Of a stretch of 64,000 nucleotides of DNA, positions 5,174 to 43,901 are shown piece after piece. The DNA comes from an uncultured Gammaproteobacteria bacterium (GTDB lineage Bacteria; Patescibacteriota; Patescibacteriia; UBA9934): NCBI GenBank assembly GCA_964401485.1, contig CAYNYL010000006.1, positions 4,208-68,207 on the forward strand, read 5' to 3'. The notes under the pieces were generated by a model. It saw nothing but the letters and a program-made list of their open reading frames with translations, ran no database searches and was not told the DNA's origin. Position 1 is the stretch's first letter. Each line of letters opens with the position of its first letter. The position numbers were made by a program, and so were the translations under genes.

Positions 5174-5276
5174 GACTGTTGGGGATTTTTTGTTGCCCCT
5201 AGCGTCAACTTTAGTTTTCCACAGGCTCATTCGTGACATGCTTCCTTTTTCGTATTTTTTCGTATATTGTTTGAAT

Positions 5277-6836: not shown

Positions 6837-6840
6837 ACAA

Positions 6841-7926: not shown

Positions 7927-7931
7927 ATCAT

Positions 7932-9551
7932 TTACTTCTTAGCCGCTTTTAAAAAGCCGAGGAACAACGGGTGTGGGGACAATGGACGCGACTGGAATTC
8001 GGGATGAAACTGTACGCCAACAAAGAACGGGTGATCTTTCACTTCAACGATTTCAACGAGACGATTGTCGGGCGACGTTCCCGCGATAACAAGACCCGCG
8101 GATTCGAGCACCTCTCTGTAATCATTATTAAACTCGAAACGGTGGCGGTGGCGTTCGCTAATCGAATCGGTTCCGTAAGCCTTTCGCGAAGCCGTCCCTT
8201 TCTTAAGTACGCACGGATACGAACCGAGACGAAGCGTTCCGCCGATCCCGCCCTCCTCAAGTTTTTCTTCTTGATCATCCATTAAATGGATCACCGGCGC
8301 CTTTGTTTTCGGTTTAATTTCGGTTGTTTGCGCGTCCTTAAGCCCGCACACATTTCGCGCGAATTCGATTACGGCGCACTGCATTCCGTAACACAGCCCG
8401 AGATACGGAATTTTATGCTCGCGGACATAATTAATCACCGCAATCTTTCCCTCGATCCCTCGCGACCCAAACCCGCCCGGAATAAGAATCCCGTCGAAGG
8501 TCTTAAGCTCCGCGAGTTTCTCGGGATGTTTTTCATATTCCTCGGCGTTTAGCCATTCAATCTTTGGCATTTGCCCAGTCGCCCATGACGCATGCTTAAT
8601 TGCCTCAAGAACCGAAAGGTACGCGTCGGTCAAGATAAAATCGCCGGTTGAGAAGTACTTTCCAACAACACCGATATGCACCTCTTTCTTCACCGTCGTA
8701 ATCGTCCTCACGAGTTTTTCAAACGCGCGAAGGTCTGCCGGCTTTGATTTCATTTTATATGAGCGCAAAACGGTTTCCGCAAACTTCTGTCGTTCAAAAT
8801 TAAGCGGAACTTCGTAAATAGAACGCGCATTCGGCGCTGTAATAATATGATCCTTCGGCACCCCGCAAAACCGCCCAAGCTTTTCACGTCTCGGTTCGTC
8901 AAGCTCCGCCTCCGAGCGACAAATAATAAAGTCCGGCACAATTCCGACACGATTAATTTCGCGCACGGCGTGTTGCGTCGGCTTTGTTTTCATTTCTCCA
9001 ATCGACGGCGGAACCGGAAGGTAACTTACAAGAATCGTCTTTACCGCGTCCGGATCCTTCATCTTCATCATCCGTAGAGCCTCAAGAAACAGAATATTTT
9101 CATATTCCCCAACCGTTCCCCCGATCTCGATTAACACAAAATCCGCCTTCGCCTTATCCGCGGCGTGTTCAATCCGCGCGATCACTTCTTCCGGTACACG
9201 CGGAACAACCTCGACGCATTTACCGTGATAATCCCCCCGGCGCTCGCGCTCGATCACACTTTGATACACGCGCCCGGTCGTCATGTAATTATCCCGCGTA
9301 ATATCAATATCGAGGAACCGTTCGTAGTTCCCAATATCTTGATCAGTCTCGTCACCGTCAACCGTTACAAACACTTCTCCGTGTTCAACCGGGTTCATCG
9401 TCCCGGCGTCCACGTTCACATACGGATCTATTTTTATCGCAGTAACTTTGTAACCCCGAGCCTTAAGGGTAAGTCCGAGCGCAGCGCTTGACGTCCCCTT
9501 TCCAACTCCCGACATGACTCCTCCTACGATAAATAGATACCGATGTTTCAT
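7932..9551 (-). CDS. pyrG: CTP synthase. Likely start MKHRYLFIVGG at 9551; the ORF extends to 9569.
   Basis: N-terminal GGVMSGVGKG P-loop-like motif and C-terminal class-I glutamine amidotransferase domain (GFGSRGIEGK...LGLCYGMQ...HPEF). Confidence 0.95.
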   Translation of the reverse strand: MKHRYLFIVGGVMSGVGKGTSSAALGLTLKARGYKVTAIKIDPYVNVDAGTMNPVEHGEVFVTVDGDETDQDIGNYERFLDIDITRDNYMTTGRVYQSVIERERRGDYHGKCVEVVPRVPEEVIARIEHAADKAKADFVLIEIGGTVGEYENILFLEALRMMKMKDPDAVKTILVSYLPVPPSIGEMKTKPTQHAVREINRVGIVPDFIICRSEAELDEPRREKLGRFCGVPKDHIITAPNARSIYEVPLNFERQKFAETVLRSYKMKSKPADLRAFEKLVRTITTVKKEVHIGVVGKYFSTGDFILTDAYLSVLEAIKHASWATGQMPKIEWLNAEEYEKHPEKLAELKTFDGILIPGGFGSRGIEGKIAVINYVREHKIPYLGLCYGMQCAVIEFARNVCGLKDAQTTEIKPKTKAPVIHLMDDQEEKLEEGGIGGTLRLGSYPCVLKKGTASRKAYGTDSISERHRHRFEFNNDYREVLESAGLVIAGTSPDNRLVEIVEVKDHPFFVGVQFHPEFQSRPLSPHPLFLGFLKAAKK

Positions 9552-9552
9552 A

Positions 9553-9993
9553 TTATTCTTCTGCTTCAATAATGACTGTAAGTTCCGCGTCGTATCCAGA
9601 ATCGAAGTTTACAACCGCCTCGTATTGCCCCGGCTCCTTCGTAGCTTCAAATGCGATCTGTTTCGGGTCGACTTTGATATCCATCTCTTTCAACGCTTTT
9701 GCAATTTCTTTGGCTGTAACAGCTGCGTAGAGTGTTCCATTATCAGCTTTTGCAAAAATCTCGACCTCGAGCCCGTCGATCGATTTCGCAAGTTCCCGTT
9801 CCGCGGCCTCCGTCTTTTTCTCTCGTCGCGCACCAGCCTTCTCTTGCTCGTCTTTTTGATGGAGCTTGTGCTCGCTCGCTTCTACCGCGAGATGTTGCGG
9901 AAAAAGAAAGTTGCGCGCGTAACCCTCGACCACTTCAACGATCTCGCCCTTGAGTCCAATTCGATCGACGTTTTCTAGTAGGATGACTCTCAT
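9553..9993 (-). CDS. rplI: 50S ribosomal protein L9
   Basis: [32 protein letters not shown] matches the L9 N-domain; 146 aa. Confidence 0.85.
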
Positions 9994-29063: not shown

Positions 29064-32000
29064 TTAGAAGATGAACGAACCTCCGGTGACTGGAAGACCT
29101 TCTACGAGGTAAGCGCCCCAGTACGAATCATCGTCCGTGCTGTCGGCCCATACACTCGCCTCTCCATCATCTTGCCAGAGCAAGCTTCCTGGAATGCGGT
29201 ACATATCGTCGTCTGTATTGCTCAACGATGCGTACGCTACTGGCGTTGTACCAGCGTATCCACGAATTACCGTCAACGTGTTGCTCGAAATTCCGATAAC
29301 GAGCATGCGTTCACTTGACGAAGGCGAAGCTCCACCGTCTGCATCGGTTTCATCGTAAGCGATGATATCACCAACAGAGTAGGCAGATCCACTGTCAACA
29401 GCGATCGTTGTATCCGTGATAGCGATCGCGGATTCATTCGTCGAGTTAGCAATTTCGATCATTGAGCTTACGATATAGTCTCCAGGGATCGAAACCTGCA
29501 AGATATCATCTTGCGTGGTCGAAGCTCCTACTGCGTTCATGTAGAGCACGTAGGTTGCCGTCGTTCCCTTCGGTACAACGATTTGATCCGTGGCACCGAG
29601 GGTCAATGTTACGAATCCAGCGTCAGCCGCCGTTGTCGTACAATCTGCACCCGTCGTTGCTTGAAGTTCCCAATCGCTGTCTGAACCCTCGATTGGATCT
29701 GAGAGGTTCGAGCTCTTGTAGAGCGTGAAGTCCGTTGTATCAAGTACGGTACCAACAGCTGCGTCGGTGTCGCATTGATTCCAGTTGCTTCCAGCATTGT
29801 CAGACGTCGAGAGTTTGAAAACCAACTCTTGAAGAACAACGTCCTCGTTTGCTGCTGCCGCTACGTTGAATCGAAGCGCTTCCATTACTGCAGGAACAGC
29901 ATTTCCCGATGGGGTTGAAGCTGAAACTGAGAATGTTGGAGCCGTTTCCTTAACCGTGAAACGTGCAGCCGTCGAAACAGCTGTTCCGCTGTCATCGTTA
30001 AGTGATTCACCAGATGAAGCTCCGATAGCCTTGAAGTTGTCATCGCCCGATGTGTCCATGAAAAGACCCATTGAGACGTACTCGTTCGAGGTTGCAGATC
30101 CTCCAGCTGTTCGGTCGGTTACTGGTACGTTTACCAATACCTTTACCTTTGCAGCGTTTTCAATCGTTACTGGGATTGAAAGACCTGTGAACTTCGCTTC
30201 GTATCCGCTTGTGAATCCACCCGTTACCGGCACTGTTGCGCCGGCAGCATTGGTGTACTCAAGGGTTACCAAGTTGATGTTGTTCGTGTAGGTCGAAGCA
30301 TCTGTTCCGGTAAGCATTCCAGCCGCTTCTTCAGAAACCGTCAACGTTTGAAGAGTGAAGTCTTCTTTCGCTGCCGTGAATCGGAATGTTGAAACGTGGT
30401 TGCTTGACATTCCCGTCAAGAGGAAGTCTGGCGTTGGGGTTGATGAATCAATTCCCATTGCAAGAGTTCCAACAGAGTCAACGGTAAGAACCTTTGAGAC
30501 AGATGCAGGGGTTGTTGCACCTCCGATGTCTGCTCCGGTTGGGGTAACCGTTGTTCCGTCCTCATCTTGTGCGGTCATGTCTGAATCCGCATCAAGCGTG
30601 AATCCGAAGTATCCAGAGTTCGTGGTTGATGGGTTTGCAAGGTTACACTTGAGATCAAGTTGTACGCTCGCTCCCGCTGCCACCTTCCAGCTGAATCCAT
30701 CGTACACGAGGTTTGCACCTGAGTTCGAAGGAGAGACTGGTCCATCGATCAATGTATCACCAACGTAGATCGAGCATGAGCTGATGTAGTCAGTAACCGT
30801 AACATCCCAGTCAGCATCAGCATCACTACTGTCGTCATCCACAGAGTTTCCTGCCGTGAACGTTCCAGAAGAGGCATCGTTTGAGTAAACGTCGATCGTA
30901 AGATCTGAAACCGTAACCTGACCAGCCTCTGAAGCAACAACGTTGTACGAGTTAACGAGAACGTTGCTTGAGTTTTGCACCGTTACTGGGTTCACTGGCG
31001 TTGAAGCGAGAGAAACCGTAAGTGATGCTGACTTCGCTGTTTGCGCTTGTCCCGTGATATCGCTCGAAGGAACGATATTTGAGGTTGAAAGCGCATCTCC
31101 TCGTCCGTCTTGTACGGTAAGTCCAGAGATATCTACCGCTGCTCCGAATTCTGTTCCGGATGTAACATCGTTGTCGATGTCCGCAAGTACTTGAAGTGTC
31201 ATCGTTTCTCCGGCCGCCATTTCAAAGTCATCCGTGAAATCGATGATTTGCGCAGCGTCTTCGGCGTCAAGAGTATCTCCGGTGATATCCGCTTCGTTTG
31301 TGTCATCATCCGTCGTCACATCAAGCTCAAGAGGTCCCATAACAACCGTTCCGGTTGCCTTGTCGACAATCTTGATGTCTGTAATGTTCGCCGTATCCGA
31401 AGCACCGATGAGTCCGGTGTTGTCTCCGGTGCCTCCACCGTCTTCATCTCCATCGAATGGATCATTATCGTCGTCGTCACCGAAAACGATAACGTCGAGG
31501 TCCTGGATCGTGAGACGTTGTGTCGCGCTTACCGTGAACTCAAGAAGAACTTGGTCTTGGCTGTTTGTTCGGATGTCCGAAGCGGTTGGACCCACAAAAG
31601 CGAGGTTCAAATCTCCGCCTTGGATTGTCGAGAACGAACAGTCGCTTGACGAACTAGCACAAGTGCCATTCGTCTCAGCTCCGCTCGAATCTCCTCCATC
31701 GTATCCACCTCGGTTGATCGTCATTCCGAAACCGTAGTCTCCACCAACGATAAGGAAGTCCGTATCGTTTTCTGTGTAAACTTCGACTGTGTCCGCAGCT
31801 TCTCCACCGATGTCAGCTGAAACTTTCAAGGTCTTTCCTTGTCCTTCCGTGATGGAAAGTGGGGATGCGAGCTTGAATGAAACGAGCTTGTCTCCGATGT
31901 AGGTTCCTGTGGCAAGAAGGGTCGTATCATTCCAGAGCTTGTAGTCTGTGTGATCCGCACCATTGTCAACCTTCAAGGTGACTTCTTGTACCGAAGCGTC

Positions 32001-33299
32001 TTCGGATGATGGGGTGAGTCGGAATTGTCCGATAACCGCATCATTTTGTCCGATCGTTGGGTTCGTCATTGTACCGTTTTTCGCGATAGTGACTGATCCA
32101 ACCGTAACGGTTCCGATTGTGTGGGTGTTTCCAGAAACTGGGAACGATCCACCAACCGATCCTCCGTTCGCGTCAACATCTGATGCTGAAGCGAGCGAGA
32201 ATTGTACTTGAGCTCCAACCGTTGAGCCCGAAGCAACCTCTGCACGAAGCGTAAGCGTTCGTGTTTCATTTGCCGCAAGGTCAAGGTCAAGGCTTCCGAA
32301 TGTTACCTTTCGTGTTGAAGCGTTTACTGAACGAGCTTCGGTCAATCGCATTTCTCCCTCGTAGAGGTAGACGTTTGAAAGATTTGAAGTTAATCCAAGC
32401 GCTCCCATGGTAAGTGTCAATTGATTGACTGTTGCCGCTTCTGAACCAGCCTTTACGTTGAAGCTGAAGAGCTTAACGCCGTTCGCCGACTTTGGAAGAG
32501 TCGAAGAAGCTGGGTTTGAAGATGCAGCCATAACCGTTACTGCTCCGGTTGAGGATGTTTCGTCGCAACCTGTTTGTGAGGCGTCAACGAGTCCGCAATC
32601 ACGTGCTGTAATATCTGAACCGGATGCAAGAGCTGAATCATCGATGTTCGCTCCATCAAGGAACCAACCATCGTTCATGTAGTTTGCAGTTCGGCCAGCG
32701 CTTGAAACCATGCGCTTTTCACCATCCCATGAGAGATAGTAGCTTCCTCCGTCCATGTACATCGCACCATCGAACGCCGTAGCGGTCATGAGCGAAGCAC
32801 CGACTGAGTAATCTTCGAAGAAGACGTCTGGAACATCGTCAATGTTTGTGTTCCAGTTGCTTCCCGCGAAATCTGTTGCAACGGTTTCTGTTTCAATCCA
32901 GTGGATGTTTCCATCGGTTGAAACAGCATAGGTCTTAGGAGCCGATTGGATTTTGATCCATCGTGATCCTGGGCGATAAACGACGTTTCCTCCGAGCGGG
33001 ATAGCCGCGAGAGATGAGTCGGAAATCGTTTGTACTCCGCTGAAGGTTGTTCTCCAGGTCTTGTACGTTTTTTCATTTGGGAAGATGTAGCGCTCGCCGT
33101 CGTATCCGTAGAAGTAGACGGTTGAAAGCGATGTTCCGCGGATCAAGTCTCCTGCCGCTGCAGCGCTCGCGTCTTGAGGCAAGCTCAATCCGGCAAGGCC
33201 GAGAGAAAGGATCGTTGCTCCAGCGACGATCGCTGTAAGAACGCGCTTCCCAACTGATGTTAGGGAGTTATCCATAAGTTTATAGTGTCCTTTTTTCAA
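29064..33299 (-). CDS. Giant (1411 aa) secreted surface protein: Thr/Ser/Gly/Asp-rich with Ig-like/DUF11-like repeats and an N-terminal copy of the ~130-aa shared domain
   Basis: Signal peptide with an Ala-rich cleavage region. N-terminal STVYFYGYDGERYIF...WIKIQSAPKTYAVS... aligns with the C-terminal domains of the two downstream proteins. Low-complexity beta-rich composition typical of adhesins and S-layer-associated proteins. Confidence 0.7.
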   Translation of the reverse strand: MKKGHYKLMDNSLTSVGKRVLTAIVAGATILSLGLAGLSLPQDASAAAAGDLIRGTSLSTVYFYGYDGERYIFPNEKTYKTWRTTFSGVQTISDSSLAAIPLGGNVVYRPGSRWIKIQSAPKTYAVSTDGNIHWIETETVATDFAGSNWNTNIDDVPDVFFEDYSVGASLMTATAFDGAMYMDGGSYYLSWDGEKRMVSSAGRTANYMNDGWFLDGANIDDSALASGSDITARDCGLVDASQTGCDETSSTGAVTVMAASSNPASSTLPKSANGVKLFSFNVKAGSEAATVNQLTLTMGALGLTSNLSNVYLYEGEMRLTEARSVNASTRKVTFGSLDLDLAANETRTLTLRAEVASGSTVGAQVQFSLASASDVDANGGSVGGSFPVSGNTHTIGTVTVGSVTIAKNGTMTNPTIGQNDAVIGQFRLTPSSEDASVQEVTLKVDNGADHTDYKLWNDTTLLATGTYIGDKLVSFKLASPLSITEGQGKTLKVSADIGGEAADTVEVYTENDTDFLIVGGDYGFGMTINRGGYDGGDSSGAETNGTCASSSSDCSFSTIQGGDLNLAFVGPTASDIRTNSQDQVLLEFTVSATQRLTIQDLDVIVFGDDDDNDPFDGDEDGGGTGDNTGLIGASDTANITDIKIVDKATGTVVMGPLELDVTTDDDTNEADITGDTLDAEDAAQIIDFTDDFEMAAGETMTLQVLADIDNDVTSGTEFGAAVDISGLTVQDGRGDALSTSNIVPSSDITGQAQTAKSASLTVSLASTPVNPVTVQNSSNVLVNSYNVVASEAGQVTVSDLTIDVYSNDASSGTFTAGNSVDDDSSDADADWDVTVTDYISSCSIYVGDTLIDGPVSPSNSGANLVYDGFSWKVAAGASVQLDLKCNLANPSTTNSGYFGFTLDADSDMTAQDEDGTTVTPTGADIGGATTPASVSKVLTVDSVGTLAMGIDSSTPTPDFLLTGMSSNHVSTFRFTAAKEDFTLQTLTVSEEAAGMLTGTDASTYTNNINLVTLEYTNAAGATVPVTGGFTSGYEAKFTGLSIPVTIENAAKVKVLVNVPVTDRTAGGSATSNEYVSMGLFMDTSGDDNFKAIGASSGESLNDDSGTAVSTAARFTVKETAPTFSVSASTPSGNAVPAVMEALRFNVAAAANEDVVLQELVFKLSTSDNAGSNWNQCDTDAAVGTVLDTTDFTLYKSSNLSDPIEGSDSDWELQATTGADCTTTAADAGFVTLTLGATDQIVVPKGTTATYVLYMNAVGASTTQDDILQVSIPGDYIVSSMIEIANSTNESAIAITDTTIAVDSGSAYSVGDIIAYDETDADGGASPSSSERMLVIGISSNTLTVIRGYAGTTPVAYASLSNTDDDMYRIPGSLLWQDDGEASVWADSTDDDSYWGAYLVEGLPVTGGSFIF

Positions 33300-33420: not shown

Positions 33421-34467
33421 TTACTCCACCACGGTCTCTGCATCTTCGGTCTCCGGTTCTTCCTGCGAGCTATTGGCGAAGATGATAGCATCTTCCGCCT
33501 CTGCAAGGAGAGCCTCGATTGTGAGTAAGTGCCCTTCCGCTGTCGCGAGGAGATCGAAGGCGGTTCGATAACTTGCCGTTGCGGCAAAGTCCATTGAGTC
33601 AAAGAGCGCAGTGGAAACAGAATTTACGTTGTATTCAAGTTCTCCGAGTTGCTCTTGCGTGACCGCTGGATTTTTCCCGGCAAGTGCGCGAATTCGATCG
33701 ATACGCGCGAGGTCAAATGTTTGGCGCTCCTTGATCGAAGTGAACCGGTTTTGGTAGGCCCGCTTTGCATTCTCCGTCGTCGTCACGTTTTCCTTGAGTT
33801 CTTCGTGCGCTTCGACAATGACCGCAACCGCCGTGTTTGAGGCGGACTCGGTCGCCGTCATCGCCTCCTTTCCTTCTGCCGTACCAACATTCACCTGGAT
33901 CTCCGACGAGAATGACTTCAGCTTCTCATCGACAGCGCTCGCGATCGTCGAGGCCTCACTCGTCTTTTCACTTCGCAGAATTTCGAGATCCGCCTGCGCC
34001 TGCGCGATCTGTGTCGAGAAACCTTTCATTGCGGTCTGTACCTTCGCTTTCGCCTCGTCGCTCTCCCCCGCTACCGCCGTCGCCTCGTCGAGTCGCCGTT
34101 TTGCGAACTCAGTATGAAGGATCGCCTTTTTCTCCCTCGAAGCAAGCCGGAGTTGCGCCCGCTCGGTTGCGAGCTTAACGCTATATAAGGAATCGCCCGG
34201 GAGCGAGCTCGACGCCCGAACCGTCGTTAAAGATCCTCCGAAGGCAATGACAAAAAACGCCACGACAACCGTTACCGGCATCGAGACAAATCCACGGAAA
34301 TAGAAACCCACCGTCGCAAAAACCGTTTCAAATTTAGAAACTTCTTTCTCTTCCCCGCCAATCGCCGAGAGGAGCATCGCTCGCGCTCGCGCCTTCTCAA
34401 CCAAAGAAACCGCTCCGAACTTCGGATCATCGCGACGGCTCTTCAATTGGTGAAGAAGGTCATTCAT
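33421..34467 (-). CDS. Putative anti-sigma factor: single-pass membrane protein with an extracytoplasmic coiled-coil/helical domain
   Basis: Start lies 1 nt after the ECF sigma stop. It has a cytoplasmic N-terminal segment, one TM (VTVVVAFFVIAFGGSLTTV) and a long helical C-terminal region. No family signature recognised. Confidence 0.45.
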   Translation of the reverse strand: MNDLLHQLKSRRDDPKFGAVSLVEKARARAMLLSAIGGEEKEVSKFETVFATVGFYFRGFVSMPVTVVVAFFVIAFGGSLTTVRASSSLPGDSLYSVKLATERAQLRLASREKKAILHTEFAKRRLDEATAVAGESDEAKAKVQTAMKGFSTQIAQAQADLEILRSEKTSEASTIASAVDEKLKSFSSEIQVNVGTAEGKEAMTATESASNTAVAVIVEAHEELKENVTTTENAKRAYQNRFTSIKERQTFDLARIDRIRALAGKNPAVTQEQLGELEYNVNSVSTALFDSMDFAATASYRTAFDLLATAEGHLLTIEALLAEAEDAIIFANSSQEEPETEDAETVVE

Positions 34468-34468
34468 A

Positions 34469-34999
34469 TTAGACAGACTCTTTCAGCGCTTTTTTCGCGC
34501 GTGAGAGGAGAACCCTGACATTATTTGATGTTTTTTCTAGTGCCCCCGCGATTTCCTTAATCGACATCTGATCAAGGAACCGCATCACGAGAACTTCTCT
34601 ATACTCTTCTTTCAATTTTTTCATGGCCCGCAGGAGCTCATCGCTCTCTTCGTGGATCATGACCTGCTCGACAAGGACGTCGGCACCCGAAAGCATTTCA
34701 GCCGATTCGAGCCCATCCTCACGTCTCTTACTTTGTGCCCGATAGAAATCGGCAATCAAGTTCCTCGCGATCTTATAGAAGAGCGCACCAGCGTTCTCTA
34801 CCTGACTCGACGTCGTGAACTCCCAGCCGCGAAGAAAGACTTCGCTTGTGAGTTCGTCGACATCTTCTTTTTTCGCGAGCTTGAAAAGAAGGAAGCGTCG
34901 AATGCGCTCGTAGAACAAGTCGTACAGTTCCGCATATGCTTTCGCATCTTGGAAGCGGTACACACGAAAAAGAAGAAATCGTTGACGGCGCATTGACAT
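34469..34999 (-). CDS. ECF-type sigma-70 family RNA polymerase sigma factor
   Basis: Region 2 (DVDELTSEVFLRGWEF...FYKIARNLIADFYR) and region 4 HTH (LKEEYREVLVMRFLDQMSIKEIAGALEKTSNNVRVLLSRAKKALKE). Confidence 0.8.
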   Translation of the reverse strand: MSMRRQRFLLFRVYRFQDAKAYAELYDLFYERIRRFLLFKLAKKEDVDELTSEVFLRGWEFTTSSQVENAGALFYKIARNLIADFYRAQSKRREDGLESAEMLSGADVLVEQVMIHEESDELLRAMKKLKEEYREVLVMRFLDQMSIKEIAGALEKTSNNVRVLLSRAKKALKESV

Positions 35000-35414: not shown

Positions 35415-36602
35415 ATGGACGCTCAACTTTTCGAAGCGTACAAAGCGCTTCGCGTCCCGTCGGTAGCAAAATCCGTCAGACAAGATTACAAAACGCTGAA
35501 TGAAAAAAAGGGTACGTTTCTTAAAACGCGAGAAATCCCGACGTTTACTTACGAGAAAGCGGGACGCGTGTCCGTTCAAAATTATCTAAAACGCCTCGAA
35601 CGCTTTAAACGACTCCTTGCAAATTCAACCCTTAATCCGATCGTACGAGAACTCTATGAGGAAAAAGTACGAGAACTCGAGATCAAGGGCCAACTTATTA
35701 TCGCCGTACAACAAGAGGACGACGCAAAGGTAAGTACTCTCTCTGGCGAACTACATTCCTTCCCAAAAACAAGCCTAGAAACGGTCAACGCCGAGCTCGA
35801 AGAACGGCTCCGATTTGCTGAAACCTTTCATCTTCATCGTAACCCGATAGACGCTGACCAATTTTCGAAAATGGTCGAAGTGCTTCTTGCGCGTTACGAC
35901 ATCGCCGACACAAAGATCGCCCGTACCGTCCGAAAAACAATTCGAATCTCACACACTTCAACCGACAAACAAACAATCTACATCCCGCATAAACTTAAAC
36001 TCTCAAGATCCCGCGCCCGACGCGTTCTTACACATGAAATCGAGGGTCATCTCCTTCGACGCGCGAATGCCTATACCCAACCGCTCCACCTCCTTCGAGT
36101 AGGACTTTCGGGCTATATGGCAACTGAGGAAGGAATCGCGACCTATCTCCAAAAAAAGGCCGACACACACGAGAAGCGATTCGACCCTGGATTTTGGGAT
36201 CTCTTTGCGACAGTGCTAACAAAGACAAATGATTTCAACGGCGTATTTGATGCGCTTTATTCCGCGAAACTTCGACTTCTTGAAAAGCAAGGCGTTGAAG
36301 ATGCAAAAACACACGCGGAAGATTCGGCGTGGACGCTTTGCCTTCGCGCCTACCGCGGAATTCGACACCCAAATACTCCAGGCCTCGGTTACTATCGTGA
36401 CCACCTCTACCGAGAAGGATTTTCAGAGGTACGAGAGGCAATTACGCAAAACCCTAGGATTCTTTCCGAACTCTTTATCGGAAAGGTCTCACTTCGTCAT
36501 CTTCCAAAACTAAAAGAACTCAGGCTTTCTAATTCCCGAGTTCCAAAACTGCTTGCCGGCGAGGTCGTGAAACTTATTCGTGAGCGAGAACGCCGTGCTT
36601 AA
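35415..36602 (+). CDS. DUF1704-like protein with an HExxH zincin motif (putative metallopeptidase/amidase)
   Basis: THEIEGHLLRRANAY (HEIEGH) and TEEGIATYLQ (QEGLA-like motif). Confidence 0.55.
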   Translation: MDAQLFEAYKALRVPSVAKSVRQDYKTLNEKKGTFLKTREIPTFTYEKAGRVSVQNYLKRLERFKRLLANSTLNPIVRELYEEKVRELEIKGQLIIAVQQEDDAKVSTLSGELHSFPKTSLETVNAELEERLRFAETFHLHRNPIDADQFSKMVEVLLARYDIADTKIARTVRKTIRISHTSTDKQTIYIPHKLKLSRSRARRVLTHEIEGHLLRRANAYTQPLHLLRVGLSGYMATEEGIATYLQKKADTHEKRFDPGFWDLFATVLTKTNDFNGVFDALYSAKLRLLEKQGVEDAKTHAEDSAWTLCLRAYRGIRHPNTPGLGYYRDHLYREGFSEVREAITQNPRILSELFIGKVSLRHLPKLKELRLSNSRVPKLLAGEVVKLIRERERRA

Positions 36603-37434
36603 GAAGCGACGCCATCTCGATTTGATCAACAATCGCCGTCGCCCGTTTCTCCCATGTTGAGCGGATTTCGACTTCAACGCGTGCCTCGTGACCAAGAATC
36701 ATCCATTCTTCAATCGTCGTCGGTTCATCTTTTGGTGCGAGGCTTCCCGTGTACACCGTTCCATAACTCATCGTCTCCTCGCGCATGTCGCTCGTCGTCA
36801 CAACGCCGAGTGCGCCGCTAAAGAGCGCGTAAAGGGTGCTTGCGTCACGTGCCTCGGGAACATGGATCGTTCCTTTCATGTGAAGCGCCTCCCCGCCAAA
36901 AATCGCAACTGGGTAACGGCCAAGAAATCGTCGAACCGCTTGCTTCACTTCCTGTTGTTCAAGGGAGCGAGCGTCAATAAGCATGTACCCCTTTGCATCA
37001 AGTCCATAAACCGAAAGAAGTGTCGGACTAATGATTCCCCGCTTTTTCTCAATCCCATCAACAATTTGCACAACAGTTGTCGCAAAAACCGCGCTGATCG
37101 ATTTGGCCGGGGTACGTTCCGCGATAACGATCGTTGTGCGTGGAGCGAGAACGCGTGCAAACGCAACGTCAATAACAGCGGGCGAAACGAAGAAAATGTG
37201 GGTTGGGCGAGTCCAAAGAAGCTCAACAATCAACCCAAACTGACGCAAACCAGGAAGCTTAGAAAACGTTCCGATATCGACAAAGTCGCGTCGTGATTCA
37301 TTCATTTTTTGAAAGAATAGAGCCCGAACCGTGTGCTTCTTTGCCCCAAAAATCGAACCAATGCCGAAAATCCAAGCAATTTCGCTTGTTTTTTGTTTCG
37401 GAGAGTCGATGATCATTAAACGCATAAGGGGCAA
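36574..37434 (-). CDS. Hypothetical protein (286 aa)
   Basis: ORF with protein-like composition, convergent to and overlapping the 35415-36602 gene by 29 nt. No family recognised. Confidence 0.35.
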   Translation of the reverse strand: MPLMRLMIIDSPKQKTSEIAWIFGIGSIFGAKKHTVRALFFQKMNESRRDFVDIGTFSKLPGLRQFGLIVELLWTRPTHIFFVSPAVIDVAFARVLAPRTTIVIAERTPAKSISAVFATTVVQIVDGIEKKRGIISPTLLSVYGLDAKGYMLIDARSLEQQEVKQAVRRFLGRYPVAIFGGEALHMKGTIHVPEARDASTLYALFSGALGVVTTSDMREETMSYGTVYTGSLAPKDEPTTIEEWMILGHEARVEVEIRSTWEKRATAIVDQIEMASLLKHGVLAHE

Positions 37435-37533
37435 TTCTAGCAGATTTAAGCCATTTTGTCAAAAAGAAATAGGGCCCGAAGCATTTCTGCTTCGAGCCCT
37501 CTTCACCCGCGTGTGTTCACGCGAGTGGACGAA

Positions 37534-40500
37534 TCACTGGCCGGTGTAGGCGACGCGCCAGAAGGTCGTTCCACCCTCCGTACGCCGCTCGATCCGACAC
37601 AGACTCGTGTCGTTGAGGTACGCCCCACCGAGATGCACCGTCGAGATGCCGAGCGAGCCCTGGAGCTCGATCGACCAGTCGCCGGTCGTGAAACTCGCTC
37701 CCCGCGTCGCCGAGTCGAAACTCGACGTCGAGAGAAGGTTCATTCCACGAACGTACCGAACCGTCGTCGGCGTCCCCACGCTCGAGAGCGTGTAGGAGGC
37801 GAGCGGACCGGTCGCGGTCACCGACAGGGTCGAACCGCTCACCGCACAGGTCAGGGCGATCTGACACTGGTAGGTCGTCTGGTTGGCACAGCTGTACGCC
37901 GTCCAAGCAGTCGTCCCACCCGTTCCGCCGGTTCCGCCCGACGTGCCGGTCTCATCGACCTGCCCGTCACAGTCGTCGTCGATGGTGTTGCCCGCAACTT
38001 CCGACGCTCCCGGATGAACCGAGGGCTTGAGGTCGTCGCAGTCGTTGCCATCGTCGTCGAAGGGCGCGTACTCGATCTCGCGCTCGGGCATCTCGTCACA
38101 GGCGAAGATCGACGGCCGACCGTCATCTCCGTACCCGTCCTCGTCGCGATCCTGCAACCATTCGATGGTCGCGGGATCCGAGGGGAGCGGACTCTCGTCG
38201 ACCTGCCCGTCGCAGTCGTCGTCGAGATCGTTGCACCGTTCCTGCGCTCCCGGGTTGCGGGAGGCGGTCGTCGGGGCGCAGTCGCCCGCGACGCTCGCGA
38301 AGCCGGACCGGATCGTACAGGCCTGGATCGTACTCGAGGCGACTCCGTACGAGTCGCTGTCCACGTCCGCGTAGAAGGTCGAGGCGCCGATCGCCCCGTC
38401 CTCGTCGATGACCGTGTCGCAGTCATCGTCGACACCGTTGCACCGCTCGCTCGCGCTCGGGCTGACCGCCGAGTTCGAGTCGTTGCAGTCGGTCGCCACC
38501 GCGTAGTAGCCGGTGGGCGCCGTGCACGCCTGCGTCGTCGTTGCGCTTCCCGCGAAGAGGTCGCGGTCGGCGTCGAGGTAGAAGGTCATCTTGACCCCCT
38601 CGTCGATTCCGCCGATGCAGTTGTTGTCGACCCCGTCGCAGACCTCGGTCGCGTTCGGGTTGATGAGCCGGGAGAGGTCATCGCAGTCGTTCGCGTTCGT
38701 CACGAGTCCGCTCGTGCGCGTGCAGGAAGCCTGCGTCTCGGTCATGCTCCCGAAGGAGTCGCCGTCCCGATCGACGTTGAACGTGGTCATGTCGACCGCG
38801 TTCTCGTCGACCGCACCACTGCAGTTGTCGTCGACACCGTTGCACCGCTCGGAAGCACCGGGCTTCACGGCGGGGTCGCTGTCGTTGCAGTCAGTCGAGC
38901 GGGCGGAGTAGCCCGTCGGGACCGTGCACGCGAGCGTCGTCGGCGAGGGCACCCCGTAGGTGTCGCCGTCCGCGTCGCGGTAGAACGTCGTTCCGCCGGT
39001 CGCCCCGGCCTCGTCGATCTGCGCGTCGCAGTCGTCGTCGTAGCCGTTGCAGGCCTCAACGCCGTTCGGGTTGACCGCGACCTTGGTGTCGTCGCAGTCG
39101 TCGTTGTTCGCCGTGTAGCCGGAAGGCGCGCTACACGCCTGCACGGTGTCACGTCCGCCGAAGGTGTCGGCGTCGGCGTCCTTGTAGTACGTGTACGTTG
39201 CGCCCTCATCGGTGGAACCATCGCAGTCGTCATCCTTCCCGTTGCACACCTCCGTGGCGCCGGGGAAGATGGAGCGGTTCCGATCGTCGCAGTCCTGGCT
39301 GTTCGCGACGAGTCCGACCGTGGCCGTACAGGCACGGATCGGCGCACCGAGGTCTCCGAAGAGATCCCGATCGGTGTCGGCGTAGAACGTGATCATGTCG
39401 ACCGCGTTCTCGTCGATCTCCGCGTCGCAGTCATCGCTCACCCCGTTGCACCGCTCTTGGGCGCCCGGGTTGATCGCGACGTTGCCGTCGTTGCAGTCGC
39501 CGGTGCGGGCGATGTACCCGACCGGCGCCGTGCAGGCGACCTGCGTGCGATTCGGATCACCGTACGTGTCGGTGTCCGCGTCGAGGTACCAGGTCGCTCC
39601 ACCGGTCGCGCCGGCCTCGTCGATCTGCGTGTCACAGTCGTTGTCGACCGCGTCGCAGACCTCGCTCGCACCAGGACGAATCGCGACATTCCCGTCGTTG
39701 CAGTCGCCAGCGAGGGCGACGTAGCCCGACGGGATCGCGCTCGGACACCCGGGAGTGGTCTGCGTCTGCAGCCCGTACCCGTCGCCGTCCGCGTCGCGGT
39801 AGTAGGCGACTTGGACATTCTCGTCGACCTGCCCGTCACAGTCCTGATCCGCGCCATCGCAGACCTCCGACCCTCCGGGCCGGATGTCACTACGCGTGTC
39901 GTTGCAGTCCGTGTTCGTCGTCGCGAATCCCGCGCTGATCGTACAGGCCCGAACCGTCTGCGTCGTTCCGAACCCGTCTCGGTCCGTGTCGACGAAGAAC
40001 GTCGTGCCGTTGACGGGGTCGTTGTTGACGAGCCCGTCGCAGTCGTTGTCGAACGTGTCGCAGACCTCGCTCGCGCCGGGATTGACCGACGCGACACCGT
40101 CGTTGCAGTCGAACGCCGAGCGCACCGCGACCCAACCGGTCGGCGGAGGCGCGCAGAACTGATGCGAGCCGACGGCGTTTCCCCACCCGTCCCGATCGGA
40201 ATCGGGGAAGTAGGTCGTCGTCCCTTCGGCGTCATCTTCGTTCGCGACCCCGTCGCAGTCATCGTCGTGCGTCGTCGAGCAGAGCTCTTCGGCGTCCGGG
40301 TTGACCGAGGCGAGGCCGTCGTTGCAGTCGCCACCCTCGGCCGTGTAGCCGGGAGGGGCGGTGCAGGCGAGCACCGTCGTCTGGGAATTCCCGAAGGTAT
40401 CCCCGTCCGAATCGGCGTAGAACGTCCGACTTCCGGTTGCTCCGGTCTCGTTGTTCGTGCCGTCGCAGTCGTTGTCGATCGTGTCACAGACCTCGGCGAC

Positions 40501-40992
40501 GCCCGGGTTGACCGAGGCGACGCTGTCGCAGGACTCGTAGCCCAGCTGATCGCCGTTCTCGACGTAGCCGGGTTGCGGACCGCACGCGCGTTCGACGATC
40601 GTCGCGTTCACCGCGTACCGATCGCCGTCCGCGTCGACGAGGAACTGGCACACCTCGTCGGGGCTCACTCCTTCGTCGACCTGCCCGTCGCAGTCGTTGT
40701 CGAATCCGTCGCTCCGCTCGAGCTCTCCGGGGTTGATCCCGGCGAGCCCACCCTCGACACCGTCGAGGGAACGTCCCCCGACATCCGCCATCACGTCGGC
40801 GCAATCGCCGTCGCGATCGATGTATCCCCGGGGGGCCGTGCTCGCGCACGTGGAAGTGTTGCTCCGGCCGAAGCCGTCGCTGTCCGCGTCCGCGAACCAC
40901 TCCCTTTCGCCGGCGGGGCAATCACCCCCGTCGACCTGAAGACAGCCTGACCCCGCGACCACCATGGTCGCGAGGAGCGCAAGGTAGCGCAT
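37534..40992 (-). CDS. Giant lipoprotein (1152 aa) built from ~14-15 tandem MopE-type putative metal-binding repeats, with a distinct Thr/Gly-rich C-terminal domain
   Basis: Signal/lipobox MRYLALLATMVVAGSGC. Repeats of the form YxDADGDGYG...ACxxPxGY...DCNDxxxxxxPGAxExCNGxDDDCDGxxDE. The gene is strongly GC-rich (~65%). Confidence 0.8.
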   Translation of the reverse strand: MRYLALLATMVVAGSGCLQVDGGDCPAGEREWFADADSDGFGRSNTSTCASTAPRGYIDRDGDCADVMADVGGRSLDGVEGGLAGINPGELERSDGFDNDCDGQVDEGVSPDEVCQFLVDADGDRYAVNATIVERACGPQPGYVENGDQLGYESCDSVASVNPGVAEVCDTIDNDCDGTNNETGATGSRTFYADSDGDTFGNSQTTVLACTAPPGYTAEGGDCNDGLASVNPDAEELCSTTHDDDCDGVANEDDAEGTTTYFPDSDRDGWGNAVGSHQFCAPPPTGWVAVRSAFDCNDGVASVNPGASEVCDTFDNDCDGLVNNDPVNGTTFFVDTDRDGFGTTQTVRACTISAGFATTNTDCNDTRSDIRPGGSEVCDGADQDCDGQVDENVQVAYYRDADGDGYGLQTQTTPGCPSAIPSGYVALAGDCNDGNVAIRPGASEVCDAVDNDCDTQIDEAGATGGATWYLDADTDTYGDPNRTQVACTAPVGYIARTGDCNDGNVAINPGAQERCNGVSDDCDAEIDENAVDMITFYADTDRDLFGDLGAPIRACTATVGLVANSQDCDDRNRSIFPGATEVCNGKDDDCDGSTDEGATYTYYKDADADTFGGRDTVQACSAPSGYTANNDDCDDTKVAVNPNGVEACNGYDDDCDAQIDEAGATGGTTFYRDADGDTYGVPSPTTLACTVPTGYSARSTDCNDSDPAVKPGASERCNGVDDNCSGAVDENAVDMTTFNVDRDGDSFGSMTETQASCTRTSGLVTNANDCDDLSRLINPNATEVCDGVDNNCIGGIDEGVKMTFYLDADRDLFAGSATTTQACTAPTGYYAVATDCNDSNSAVSPSASERCNGVDDDCDTVIDEDGAIGASTFYADVDSDSYGVASSTIQACTIRSGFASVAGDCAPTTASRNPGAQERCNDLDDDCDGQVDESPLPSDPATIEWLQDRDEDGYGDDGRPSIFACDEMPEREIEYAPFDDDGNDCDDLKPSVHPGASEVAGNTIDDDCDGQVDETGTSGGTGGTGGTTAWTAYSCANQTTYQCQIALTCAVSGSTLSVTATGPLASYTLSSVGTPTTVRYVRGMNLLSTSSFDSATRGASFTTGDWSIELQGSLGISTVHLGGAYLNDTSLCRIERRTEGGTTFWRVAYTGQ

Positions 40993-41181
40993 GGTTCACC
41001 TCGTTGTGAATGACCAAACTTCAAGAATCGGGATTATTCCCGATCTTGCGCAAGGCGACAATTCCCTACGTAAGACAAGGAAAAATGAAGGAGCTTTTTA
41101 TCATAAAATCTAAAAAACGTCAACCGTTAGCGGAGAAAGAAGAAACCCCACCCCCGAGCGTTCTCGGAAGTGGGGTCAGTT

Positions 41182-43791
41182 TCAGGGGACAGAGAGGTAG
41201 AGCTCGCCCACCTGTGGGTTCGCGAGGTCAAGGACACACGCCTCGTTTTCAACCGGGTCGAGCGCGATTCCATCGCGCAAAACACGGGCAAAACGGACTT
41301 GGCCCCCGTCGTAGGGCTTTGAGGCAACGGTAAACTGGAACGGACCATTGAGCGGATTGCGCGAGATGACGTGGACCGCCGTCTCGCCAAGCCAAGGCGT
41401 TCCGTTCACCGTCCCCCCGCTCGCGCGAAGCTCGCCAACCTCGAGCGTTGCCCCGCTCGTTGGATGGACGAGCGCCGGCGTGAGCCAGGGCCTGACCACC
41501 CCCCGTGCATAGACGCGGAGCGGAAACACCGGATCATCGACAAGCTCGCACCAAACGACGAGGCATCCCGCATCCGTGTCGAGCGCGTCAACCAAGGTGT
41601 CGCAATCGTTGTCCGCGCTATCGTTGCAGACTTCGACTGCGCCCGGGTAAACGCTCGGATCATCGTCGTCACAGTCCCCCGTCTCAAGTGCATAGTCGCC
41701 GGAGGCCGGCTCAACGCACCGAGTAACCGAGGCCGCTCCGCCGACACCGTCGACATCGTGGTCCGCGTACCACCGCGTCGCGCCCGTGACGCTGTCCGCG
41801 TCATCGACGAGCAAATCGCAATCGTTATCGACCCCGTCGCAGATCTCGTCTGCTCCCGGGCGAATCGCTGCGACCGTGTCGTTGCAATCCCCCGCGCGTT
41901 GCACGTATCCCGGCGGGACCGTACAGCTCGCAAGTGACTGCGTAGACGTTCCCCAGGTATCGGCGTCCTGATCTCGGTACCAAGTTACCGACTGCGCGCC
42001 CTCGTCGATCGAGGAATCGCAATCGTTATCAAGTCCGTCACAGAGTTCCGGGGCGCCGGGGTACCGCGTCGACCGCGTGTCGTCGCAATCCCCGGCTCGC
42101 GAGGCGAAGCCAGGCGGAATCGTACAGGCGCTCATGGCCGTACCAACTCCGTAGGTATCGCGATCAACGTCCGTGTAGTAGGCGACGAGAAGGCCTTCGT
42201 CGATCTGCGTGTCGCAGTCGTCGTCGAACCCGTTGCACGTCTCTACCGCTCCGGGATAGATCGACGCGACCGCGTCGTTACAGTCCCCACCAACCGACAC
42301 GTACCCGCTCGGACGAGAACAGGCGAGACGCGTTGTACTTCCGCCAAACGCATCCCCGTCCCCATCGACATACCACGTCGTGCGCCCACTCGGCGCCGTG
42401 TCGAAGTCGTCAACGAGCGTGTCGCAGTCGTCGTCGAACCCGTTGCACCGCTCTTCGGCGCTCGGGTTGACGCTCGCGAGGCCGTCGTCACAGTCTCCCG
42501 CAACCGCGGTGTAACCCGTCGGGCGAAAGCAGGCCCGCGTCGTCACCCCTGTGTTTCCGTACTGATCGGCGTCCGAGTCCGCGTACCAAAGGAGCGGATC
42601 CGTCGCGTCCGTTTCCCCGCCCTGGCAGTTATTGTCCGTGCCATTGCAGGTTTCCAGCGCTCCAGGATACACATCCGGCCGACCGTCGTGACAGTCTCCA
42701 GCCGTTTCGACATATCCGCTTGGTTGATCGCAGGTGGCAACGCTCGCGGAAGGATCTCCCGCACCGTCACCGTCGTTATCACGATAGTAGGTCGTACGAC
42801 CAATCGCGTCCGACTCATCGCCGGAGCAATTGTTGTCGACCCCATCGCAGTAATCGAATTCCTGCGGATTCACCTGGAACGAATCGTCGTTACAGTCTGA
42901 GCCATCAAGAACATGGCCCGGAACGCTCGTACAGCCGATCACCGGATCCGCATCACCATCGCCGTATCCGTCCCCATCGAGATCCGGATAGTAGCGATTG
43001 AAGCCGAGCGTGTCTTCGTCATCGGCATCGACCGCAAGATCGCAGTCGTTGTCGACCCCATCACACACCTCGAGCGCACCGGGGAACACGTCGTCGTTTG
43101 AGTCGTCACAGTCATTGCTGTTCTCCGCGAGCACTCCCTGCTCGCAAGAGAGCACGACCTCTAACGAACCGAAACCGTCGCCGTCGAGATCCTCGAAGTA
43201 CGTACGGAGGTCACTCGCGTCGAGGTCGGTCACCTCGTCGCAGTCGTTATCGATCCCGTCACACACCTCGAGCGCCCCAGGCGAAACGAGTCCATTCGTG
43301 TCGTCGCAGTCTCCCGCATCCGGCACGAACCACCGATACGCCACCTCCCGAGCCTCGCCGTCGCACGAACGAAGCGTTTGTGCGCCCCCTCCGTAGCCGT
43401 CGAGATCATCGTCGCGGTAGACCATGAATGCGCCGTCGTTTCCGTTCGGCTCGTCCACGCCATCCACGCAGTTGTTATCGATCCCGTCACAGAACTCCAA
43501 GGCTCGCGGGAAGACGGCGCCATTCTCGTCGTCGCAATCACCGGTCTTCACCGCATGGGTGTCCGAGTGGTCGCAGTGCGACGTGAACGAGATCGTGGGC
43601 TCCATGCCACCAAATCCGTCCCTATCGCGATCGACGTAGTAGGTCGTCTCCTCGTAGCTCCAGGTGCGCGAACCGCATTCCTCAACGAGTGATGCGATCC
43701 GTGCCTCCTGCTCTTCCTCGATCCTCTCAAGGCGAAGTCGACACCCACCAAGGGCGAGAACTAAGCCCAAAACAACGAAAAGCCGTTGCAT
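41182..43791 (-). CDS. Second giant lipoprotein (~870 aa) of MopE-type repeats with a different C-terminal domain. Likely start MQRLFVV at 43791.
   Basis: Lipobox LVLALGGC. About 12 repeats such as DCDDTNGLVSPGALEVCDGIDNDCDEVTD and DCNDAVASIYPGAVETCNGFDDDCDTQIDEG. High GC. Confidence 0.8.
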   Translation of the reverse strand: MQRLFVVLGLVLALGGCRLRLERIEEEQEARIASLVEECGSRTWSYEETTYYVDRDRDGFGGMEPTISFTSHCDHSDTHAVKTGDCDDENGAVFPRALEFCDGIDNNCVDGVDEPNGNDGAFMVYRDDDLDGYGGGAQTLRSCDGEAREVAYRWFVPDAGDCDDTNGLVSPGALEVCDGIDNDCDEVTDLDASDLRTYFEDLDGDGFGSLEVVLSCEQGVLAENSNDCDDSNDDVFPGALEVCDGVDNDCDLAVDADDEDTLGFNRYYPDLDGDGYGDGDADPVIGCTSVPGHVLDGSDCNDDSFQVNPQEFDYCDGVDNNCSGDESDAIGRTTYYRDNDGDGAGDPSASVATCDQPSGYVETAGDCHDGRPDVYPGALETCNGTDNNCQGGETDATDPLLWYADSDADQYGNTGVTTRACFRPTGYTAVAGDCDDGLASVNPSAEERCNGFDDDCDTLVDDFDTAPSGRTTWYVDGDGDAFGGSTTRLACSRPSGYVSVGGDCNDAVASIYPGAVETCNGFDDDCDTQIDEGLLVAYYTDVDRDTYGVGTAMSACTIPPGFASRAGDCDDTRSTRYPGAPELCDGLDNDCDSSIDEGAQSVTWYRDQDADTWGTSTQSLASCTVPPGYVQRAGDCNDTVAAIRPGADEICDGVDNDCDLLVDDADSVTGATRWYADHDVDGVGGAASVTRCVEPASGDYALETGDCDDDDPSVYPGAVEVCNDSADNDCDTLVDALDTDAGCLVVWCELVDDPVFPLRVYARGVVRPWLTPALVHPTSGATLEVGELRASGGTVNGTPWLGETAVHVISRNPLNGPFQFTVASKPYDGGQVRFARVLRDGIALDPVENEACVLDLANPQVGELYLSVP

Positions 43792-43901
43792 TAGCCCCCC
43801 AATCATGTCCTTAACGGACAGGTAATCGTATCGGAAAACTGGGTTTTTGTAAAGAAAAAGCTGTTGACAGGGAAAAAGACCCGTGCTACTCTCTTTGCAT
43901 T

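Follow-up and report, generated by a model that had tools for sequence, protein, structure and literature searches.

Two giant coding sequences (CDSs), here called p1 and p2, lie next to each other on the minus strand of contig CAYNYL010000006.1 (GCA_964401485.1), of which we analyzed a stretch of 64,000 nucleotides (nt), the window. Both encode proteins built from tandem repeats of a family named after copper binding, and both are richer in GC than the genome that carries them. The locus raises the question of what these proteins are, which metal they bind and where their genes came from. The best joint reading, which we hold to be rather probable, is that p1 and p2 are genuine genes, each transcribed on its own, in a member of the Patescibacteria, that they encode Ca2+-loaded, disulfide-stapled lipoprotein stalks and that their CDSs were acquired horizontally.

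Searches with the Pfam family PF11617 (Cu-binding_MopE, 'putative metal-binding motif') gave 14 matching stretches in p1 (E = 1.5e-122, 399.7 bits) and 10 in p2 (E = 1.4e-83, 275.1 bits), both above the curated gathering threshold of 27 bits. No NCBIfam model, including that of the Myxococcus-type Cys-rich repeat, matched p1 or p2 at E <= 0.01. Segmentation of the translations, anchored on the Y/F-x-D-x-D-x-D start of each repeat, resulted in 24 units (14 in p1, 10 in p2) of 65-74 amino acids (aa), degenerate ones measuring up to 85 aa. Their consensus is YxDxDxDxxG...AC..P.GY....DCxD....PGAxExCDGxDNDCDGxxDE with four Cys per unit. Residues D3, D5, D7, P43 and C56 are invariant across the 24-unit alignment, and G10, the remaining three Cys, D33, D36, E47 and D53 are conserved in at least 90% of the units. 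The degenerate units 1 and 14 of p1 have lost the third Cys. Furthermore, p1 contains a three-unit super-repeat (aa 398-602 versus 603-803, 55% identical), which is also visible as spacings of 606-609 nt. During the growth of the p1 array, a block of three units was therefore duplicated at least once. The unit duplications are old.

Both proteins are extremely acidic, with an isoelectric point of about 4.05 and net charges of -162 (p1) and -142 (p2). Together they contain 306 Asp and 106 Cys (61 in p1, 45 in p2), while His and Met are very scarce (four His in p1, eight in p2). An earlier note on this DNA, made from the sequence alone, had described two giant lipoproteins of 1152 and about 870 aa with MopE-type units of about 70 aa rich in Cys and Asp and a different non-repeat domain at each C-terminus. 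Our open reading frames (ORFs) of 1152 and 874 aa, the PF11617 matches, the unit length and consensus and the dissimilarity of the two C-terminal domains agree with this description. Its estimate of about 26 repeats has to be lowered to 24; the many Asp that it had pointed out are there, and its figure of about 110 Cys was slightly too high.

The N-termini read MRYLALLATMVVAGSGC in p1 and (MIGGL)MQRLFVVLGLVLALGGC in p2. In each, an Arg close to the N-terminus makes the n-region positive, the hydrophobic core (h-region) is uncharged and a lipobox with its Cys follows. By inspection, both sequences obey the PROSITE-type lipobox rule [LIVMFWSTAG]2-[LIVMFYSTAGCQ]-[AGS]-C, and the lipoprotein signal peptides that had been claimed for both proteins fit this rule. 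The lipobox assignment throughout is an inspection of sequence patterns. A layout like that of p2 is present in a positional orthologue on contig CAZBFR010000005.1 of GCA_964491425.1 (L083), where MYRLLLVFGVLICAG precedes the Cys (ICAG-C), and a Patescibacteria relative (L050) carries the lipobox FIVG-C.

Relatives of p1 number more than 6000 at E <= 1e-20. The best of them share 35-45% identity with it, measure 1100-2000 aa and go by the names 'MopE-related protein' or 'putative metal-binding motif-containing protein'. Lipobox-type N-termini were found in 55 of the 109 best relatives starting with Met, and 11-26 units per protein were counted. Given these numbers, lipoboxes and units, the giant lipoprotein of tandem MopE-type repeats is an established architecture. 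To the array the relatives add binding or repeat domains (C-type lectin, FG-GAP, RCC1, Ig-like), proteases of the matrixin and reprolysin type, or sorting tails (type IX secretion system (T9SS), CHU_C, MYXO-CTERM). The PF11617 array behaves as a generic extracellular spacer. Tandem PF11617 proteins of the Myxococcota and other phyla thus share with p1 and p2 a unit of 65-75 aa, the identity of 35-45% over most of p1, the range of unit numbers, a lipobox in about half of the cases and variable terminal domains. In contrast to them, p1 and p2 form GC-rich islands in a Patescibacteria genome of about 50% GC and end in domains without detectable relatives. A literature search for MopE together with Patescibacteria returned nothing, nor did one for the run accession.

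The host assignment comes from GyrB, whose relatives of 73-80% identity that bear organism names all belong to the Patescibacteria group, Candidatus Uhrbacteria or Parcubacteria. Judged from these relatives, the host is an Uhrbacteria-like member of the Patescibacteria (Candidate Phyla Radiation, CPR) with about 50% GC. Rfam and tRNA scans of the window displayed no host marker. Against the window average of about 50%, p1 has a GC content of 67% and p2 of 62%. At third codon positions (GC3) the values rise to 0.86 and 0.71, compared with 0.44-0.61 in twelve neighbor genes. All codon families are affected; in p1 the codons ACA and GTA do not occur, whereas they are used 93 and 62 times in flanking genes. 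The 190-nt spacer between p2 and p1 has a GC content of 0.46 (measured over 41000-41180).

Genome contigs were searched for p1/p2-like loci, and the best 80 of more than 479 matches were considered; the genome of the window itself was not among these. In a control set of 79 PF11617 loci of other genomes, gene GC equaled flank GC within +/-0.06 in 77 cases, which include Flavobacteriales at 40-45% GC. The two exceptions were the two Patescibacteria loci. The PF11617 gene of L050 (Uhrbacteria, 7788-9935) has a GC3 of 0.71 in a neighborhood of 0.39-0.46, and that of L027 (Patescibacteria, 182-1795), which lies beside ATP synthase genes, 0.69 compared with 0.51-0.57. The gene fragment in L083 reaches 0.78 next to neighbors of 0.48-0.53. 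In low- and mid-GC hosts outside the CPR, GC3 of the PF11617 gene did not exceed that of its neighbors. The GC3 excess thus recurs in Patescibacteria and not in the other phyla examined. Amino acid composition was considered as a cause of the high GC and rejected, since the excess sits at third positions and is absent from Flavobacteriales and other non-CPR hosts; the composition of the repeats therefore does not force high GC. By these codon statistics, the PF11617 genes of Patescibacteria have the appearance of imports from GC-rich donors. The majority of relatives are encoded by Myxococcota and other genomes of 62-75% GC, and the more than 6000 relatives include no donor above about 45% identity.

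Comparison with L083 provided a view of the same locus in a second genome. This contig is collinear with the window from position 43807 on, with 73-96% nt identity by block and 81% across the 9.6 kb adjoining p2. Its last 242 nt (L083 1-242), divergent from rpmE, encode MYRLLLVFGVLICAGC…WYPDADGDGFGY…, a lipobox followed by the first PF11617 unit, and the contig breaks off within the repeat array. The locus is therefore older than the separation of the two genomes. Over 78 aa, p2 and this orthologue are only 37% identical, in contrast to the flanking proteins RF1 (90%), GyrB (98%), FtsW (86%), DUF3048 (77%) and PrmC (69%). As far as this alignment goes, the product of the p2 locus diverges much faster than its neighbors or was replaced.

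An alternative is that replacement is ongoing, a resident surface-lipoprotein CDS being overwritten repeatedly by PF11617 DNA from GC-rich neighbors or hosts, which would generate antigenic or adhesive variation. In its favor speak a GC excess limited to the CDSs while promoters, terminators and spacers are host-like, its presence in all four Patescibacteria cases examined (window, L050, L027 and L083) and not in non-CPR hosts, an orthologue at 37% identity between flanking proteins at 69-98%, and different GC3 values in p1 and p2 as left by events of different age. On the other hand, the relatives include no close donor, and the orthologue is known from a 72-codon fragment only. Moreover, fast divergence of a surface protein combined with a single old transfer and slow amelioration gives a similar picture. 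The CDS-limited GC island, its recurrence and the fast-diverging orthologue thus leave room for recurrent replacement, which we consider unlikely.

The family name of the repeats goes back to MopE of Methylococcus capsulatus, which is grouped with CorA of Methylomicrobium album among the copper(I)-binding surface proteins of methanotrophs. The form MopE* has one motif of roughly 30 aa (DCNDxxxxxxPGAxE..DGVDxNCDG), and MopE is likewise surface-associated or secreted. Its motif is single and lacks the third Cys, whereas p1 and p2 carry tandem arrays. A profile of the 24 units matched MopE* (PDB 2VOV) at residues 14-47 only (E = 1.7e-4), and a phmmer search of p1 against the PDB gave no MopE match. 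In the MopE* crystal the 46 N-terminal residues are invisible (PMC3423442), so that the motif region is absent from this structure. The high-affinity Cu(I) site is formed by His132, His203 and kynurenine-130, electron paramagnetic resonance (EPR) gave no support for Cys ligation of copper, and CaCl2 stabilizes the protein (PMC3423442). For the structured domain (residues 47-336) and this site, the Cu(I) domain of MopE/CorA with two His and a Trp-derived kynurenine, neither phmmer nor the repeat profile revealed a counterpart in p1 or p2. For PF11617, 'Cu-binding' is a family name only.

The conserved acidic segment resembles a calcium site instead. Tucker et al. aligned the PF11617 core with the Cys-rich region of teneurins (PMC3278476). 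In the 1.5 Å structure of the teneurin-4 C-rich domain, three Ca2+ are held by E835, D840, D843, N844, D845, D847, D851 and others, and all Cys are disulfide-bonded (PMC9058538). The ligand spacing of the repeat (+0, +1, +2, +4, +8) equals that of D843-N844-D845-x-D847-xxx-D851, and the segment [DN]-x-x-D-[ND]-[DN]-C-D-G-x-x-D-E is in register with the D840/D843/N844/D845/D847/D851 spacing. The core [DN]xxD[ND][DN]Cxxxx[DE] is present in 22 of the 24 units, the strict form D[ND][DN]xDxxxD in 14. We take the invariant DxDxD at the unit start to resemble the loops of EF-hands and thrombospondin type-3 (TSP3) repeats. Modules of the teneurin C-rich, TSP3 and LDL-receptor class A (LDLa) type are, like the repeat, short, Asp-rich, extracellular and disulfide-bonded (putatively so in p1 and p2), and the teneurin core D-N-D-x-D-G-x-x-D is reproduced in register. 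They differ from it in the number and spacing of Cys (six in 38 aa compared with four per 70-aa unit), and p1 and p2 have an extra N-terminal DxDxD hairpin. By analogy with these modules, the repeats most likely bind Ca2+ and not copper, and the four conserved Cys of each module probably form disulfides.

The earlier note had favored copper binding or sequestration with the Cys displayed as metal ligands. Both parts are disfavored, since the motif lies outside the MopE Cu(I) site, p1 and p2 have hardly any His, and the four conserved Cys of each extracytoplasmic, Asp-rich module agree with structural disulfides of the kind seen in the C-rich domain of teneurin (PMC9058538). The corresponding model, a surface metal sponge that binds or sequesters copper or other transition metals via Cys and Asp as MopE does in methanotrophs, draws on the family name with its significant PF11617 matches and on an enormous carboxylate density (net charge -162 and -142). 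Moreover, immobilized metal affinity chromatography led to a tentative role of the 24 N-terminal residues of MopE*, which overlap the motif, in weak Cu(II) binding (PMC3423442). The MopE* motif (14-47) is, however, disordered or cleaved in the crystal and is not the Cu(I) site, EPR lends no support to Cys ligation, and no part of either protein matches the structured domain of MopE. His and Met, moreover, are too scarce in both proteins to speak for it. In other phyla the array is joined to lectin domains, proteases or sorting tags, which fits a scaffold better than a dedicated metallochaperone. A Patescibacteria genome is not known to have a large copper demand either. We therefore give the sponge model little credence.

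To the repeat region belongs a confidently predicted fold. AlphaFold modeling of three units (p1 398-602) with a 40-row alignment of homologous three-unit blocks gave a predicted local distance difference test (pLDDT) score of 94.7 and a predicted template modeling score of 0.73. The model is mostly non-helical, with little regular secondary structure beyond one short hairpin per unit. It suggests that the three-unit block has a defined fold with fixed inter-unit geometry. A single-unit model based on the 24 window repeats as alignment was rejected (pLDDT 57.6) and the three-unit model used instead. Foldseek comparison of the model with the PDB displayed nothing below E = 4; the repeat fold is therefore without a solved representative. 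The only solved structure resembling the whole unit is the N-terminal segment of the large subunit of mammalian acyloxyacyl hydrolase (AOAH; PDB 5W7A, 5W7B, 5W7C). Its sequence FKDVDSDKY…GY…DCNDSD..V.PG……D.NCNG aligns over 45-65 residues with a root-mean-square deviation of 2.5-3.4 Å, a similarity that is not significant. The segment is present once, as part of an enzyme, and has neither the first nor the third Cys. It is reported to bind Ca2+ in the crystal.

The C-terminal domains of p1 and p2 are not repeats and show no relationship between them; for both, Pfam gave no match and the 79 related loci no relative. The p1 domain was also compared with 5.8 billion proteins by word-indexed search, again without a match. 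With the p2 domain, HMMER was run exhaustively against 1.84 billion representatives and returned the protein itself and one marginal match only (E = 3.9e-4), to Ig-like repeats. These domains are likely the functional tips of the proteins.

Taken together, we propose that both proteins are probably acylated, p1 on Cys17 and p2 on Cys22, and thereby attached to the outside of the cell membrane. The body would be a long, extremely acidic array of 14 or 10 PF11617 modules, in which the invariant DxDxD loop and the D-N-D-C-D-G-x-x-D-E segment are candidate Ca2+ ligands. Ca2+ and disulfides would stiffen the array into a spacer or stalk by which a lineage-specific C-terminal domain is kept at a distance from the cell, and p1 and p2 might serve as adhesin-like or surface-coat proteins. 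A surface location with an adhesion-type role, as suggested before, is reasonable for tandem-repeat PF11617 lipoproteins with distinct C-terminal domains. The CDSs would have been taken horizontally from GC-rich bacteria, Myxococcota and similar ones, which are rich in this array architecture.

Several observations weigh against this proposal. Lgt and LspA had no match in the Pfam-scanned part of the window ORFs or in the annotated matching contigs, a genome-wide search not having been made. Neither hidden Markov model comparison nor Foldseek linked the unit to teneurin, TSP3 or LDLa structures, and the weak AOAH matches (E >= 0.2 by sequence, >= 4 by structure) were the only ones in the PDB. 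Odd numbers of Cys occur locally, in p1 unit 1 (five Cys), in p1 unit 14 (three Cys) and, through Cys44, in the N-terminal linker of p2; such Cys may be free or engaged in intermolecular bonds. So many carboxylates may also bind other divalent metals with low affinity, and the Cu(II) assignment for MopE* counts on the same side. Finally, host-like spacers and regulatory signals around CDSs that are not host-like are poorly foreseen by a simple recent transfer of the whole locus.

The earlier note had called the repeat-coding DNA highly repetitive and prone to expansion, contraction or assembly collapse. At the DNA level this was not borne out. Tandem Repeats Finder detected no array of about 200 nt periodicity; families with a period of 198-210 nt exist, but their identity is just 60-80%. 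The 24 unit-coding segments share on average 53% and at most 71% of their nucleotides. A single exact direct repeat of 32 nt, in frame and one unit apart (Table 1), is the sole plausible candidate site for gain or loss of one 70-aa unit or for strain heterogeneity. Except at this pair, assembly collapse and frequent RecA-type slippage are unlikely.

As an independent check we used Logan contigs from the runs SRR13355620 and SRR13355621, which are 100% identical to the window. L084 covers it up to 37161, L001 covers 37140-42236, and L002 and L003 cover it from 42419 onward. L001 reaches from 394 nt inside the low-GC left flank through all of p1 and the AT-rich spacer to 1055 nt inside p2. L002 and L003, from the two runs, link p2 to rpmE and prfA and extend through at least ftsW, L002 even past gyrB. 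Each GC step thus lies inside single independent contigs, and both GC junctions are therefore real. Only 42237-42418 remained unbridged. This interval is bounded by the 32-nt copies, and the break at 42236/42419 is due to this one exact repeat. The assembly doubt raised before consequently stands for this interval, where the p2 unit count is possibly off by plus or minus one, and largely falls for a chimera. A chimeric insert from a Myxococcota-like genome or a collapsed repeat would account for the sharp GC step of 0.15-0.17 at both ends, for the breaks of the short-read k-mer contigs at 37140-37161 and 42236/42419 and for p1 and p2 being singletons in the protein collection, but is hardly credible given that L001, L002 and L003 carry both junctions without a mismatch, that in GCA_964491425.1, too, a MopE-type lipoprotein gene borders rpmE at this junction, that units with at most 71% nt identity are too diverged to collapse and that the 32-nt repeat accounts for the internal break. 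L084 and L001 overlap by 22 nt at 37140-37161, a sequence unique in the window; their meeting point, about 370 nt downstream of the p1 stop, may reflect strain variation.

Each gene has a promoter-like site and a terminator-like hairpin of its own (Table 1), which argues for separate transcription units. The ATG of p1 is preceded at a distance of 4-5 nt by the ribosome-binding site GAGGTG, and an identical p1 protein is called on Logan contig L001. Translation of p2 probably starts at Met6 (nt 43791), where the alignment to the L083 orthologue begins. A plus-strand ORF (37456-40950) was rejected as a gene; it mirrors the GC-rich repeat frame, and family support exists on the minus frame only. 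The exact p1 protein is recorded from the Logan assembly only and is absent from the NCBI record of the 72-kb contig, while p2 is recorded from NCBI only; the public annotation therefore probably has another p1 start or calls a pseudogene.

Table 1. Positions of the p1 and p2 features in the window.
Feature	Position	Strand	Description	Basis
p1 CDS	37534..40992	-	1152-aa lipoprotein, 14 PF11617-type units	ORF list and Pfam
p1 signal peptide and lipobox	40942..40992	-	MRYLALLATMVVAGSG before C, Cys17	read off translation
p1 repeat array	37948..40896	-	aa 33-1015, 14 units of 65-85 aa	segmentation and alignment
p1 linker and C-terminal domain	37537..37947	-	Gly/Thr linker (aa 1016-1029), orphan domain (aa 1030-1152, 4 Cys)	
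p1 terminator-like hairpin	37471..37500	-	intrinsic type, 13 pairs and T tract, just past p1 stop	
p1 promoter-like site	41033..41061	-	score 9/12, within AT-rich spacer upstream of p1	
p2 CDS	41182..43806	-	874-aa lipoprotein (from first ATG), 10 PF11617-type units	ORF and Pfam
p2 signal peptide and lipobox	43741..43806	-	…MQRLFVVLGLVLALGG before C, Cys22	read off translation
p2 repeat array	41584..43638	-	aa 57-741, 10 units of 65-74 aa, 4 Cys each	
p2 C-terminal domain	41185..41583	-	orphan domain, aa 742-874	
p2 terminator-like hairpin	41144..41177	-	strong, 15 pairs and T tract, right after p2 stop	
p2 promoter-like site	43825..43853	-	in divergent spacer common to p2 and rpmE (ribosomal protein L31)	
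Longest exact direct repeat in p1/p2	42207-42238 and 42417-42448		32 nt, two copies 210 nt (one unit) apart, in frame, in p2	

To the right of the two genes follow rpmE (L31), prfA (RF1), prmC, ftsW, gyrB, secE and nusG. The genes closest on the left encode an extracytoplasmic function (ECF) sigma factor together with a DUF5667 protein, and a protein resembling MATCAP. Beyond them are genes for a 1411-aa protein, a Big_5 protein and a subtilase as well as a glycosyltransferase/rhamnose cluster. The left neighborhood is envelope-rich. The ECF sigma factor and the DUF5667 protein are paired at 33421-34999 (-), and the latter may be the anti-sigma partner; the MATCAP/DUF1704-type putative carboxypeptidase is located at 35415-36602 (+). 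The 1411-aa ORF (29064-33299, -) has no Pfam match and host-like GC, and is probably another large envelope protein. At 5190-6836 (+), a 548-aa ORF combines a LexA DNA-binding domain (E = 3.5e-8), a Peptidase S24 domain of the LexA-type self-cleavage class (1.2e-25) and a C-5 cytosine DNA methyltransferase (8.1e-95), an unusual fusion of a LexA-like repressor to a Dcm-type methylase. It is directly followed by a 361-aa ORF (6841-7926, -) without Pfam match. The patch 6001-8000 has a GC content of 0.40 compared with about 0.50, and the 361-aa ORF possibly encodes the cognate restriction enzyme, as part of a small restriction-modification island of foreign origin.

Tandem PF11617 surface proteins are already known as a widespread, uncharacterised class, of which p1 and p2 are ordinary examples. 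New are the CDS-limited GC island in Patescibacteria, its recurrence there and the fast-diverging positional orthologue. For the family, our analysis implies that the 'Cu-binding' label on thousands of proteins rests on a motif other than the MopE copper site, and calcium-dependent structural modules would be a better working model for PF11617 arrays. With its high predicted confidence and no solved homologue, the three-unit block is a cheap and informative target for structure and metal analysis. A bolder proposal, which we judge improbable, is that the Patescibacteria PF11617 lipoprotein genes are a hot spot of repeated foreign-DNA uptake, in which the CDS and not the regulatory flanks is replaced by homologous genes of GC-rich bacteria, the donors possibly being the hosts of the episymbionts. 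If this were true, stalk and tip domain would form an attachment cassette open to rapid exchange. The Patescibacteria PF11617 genes stand out by their GC-rich, seemingly imported CDSs and by orthologues that diverge fast, and their products are thereby candidate surface molecules for the contact of these ultra-small cells with other organisms.

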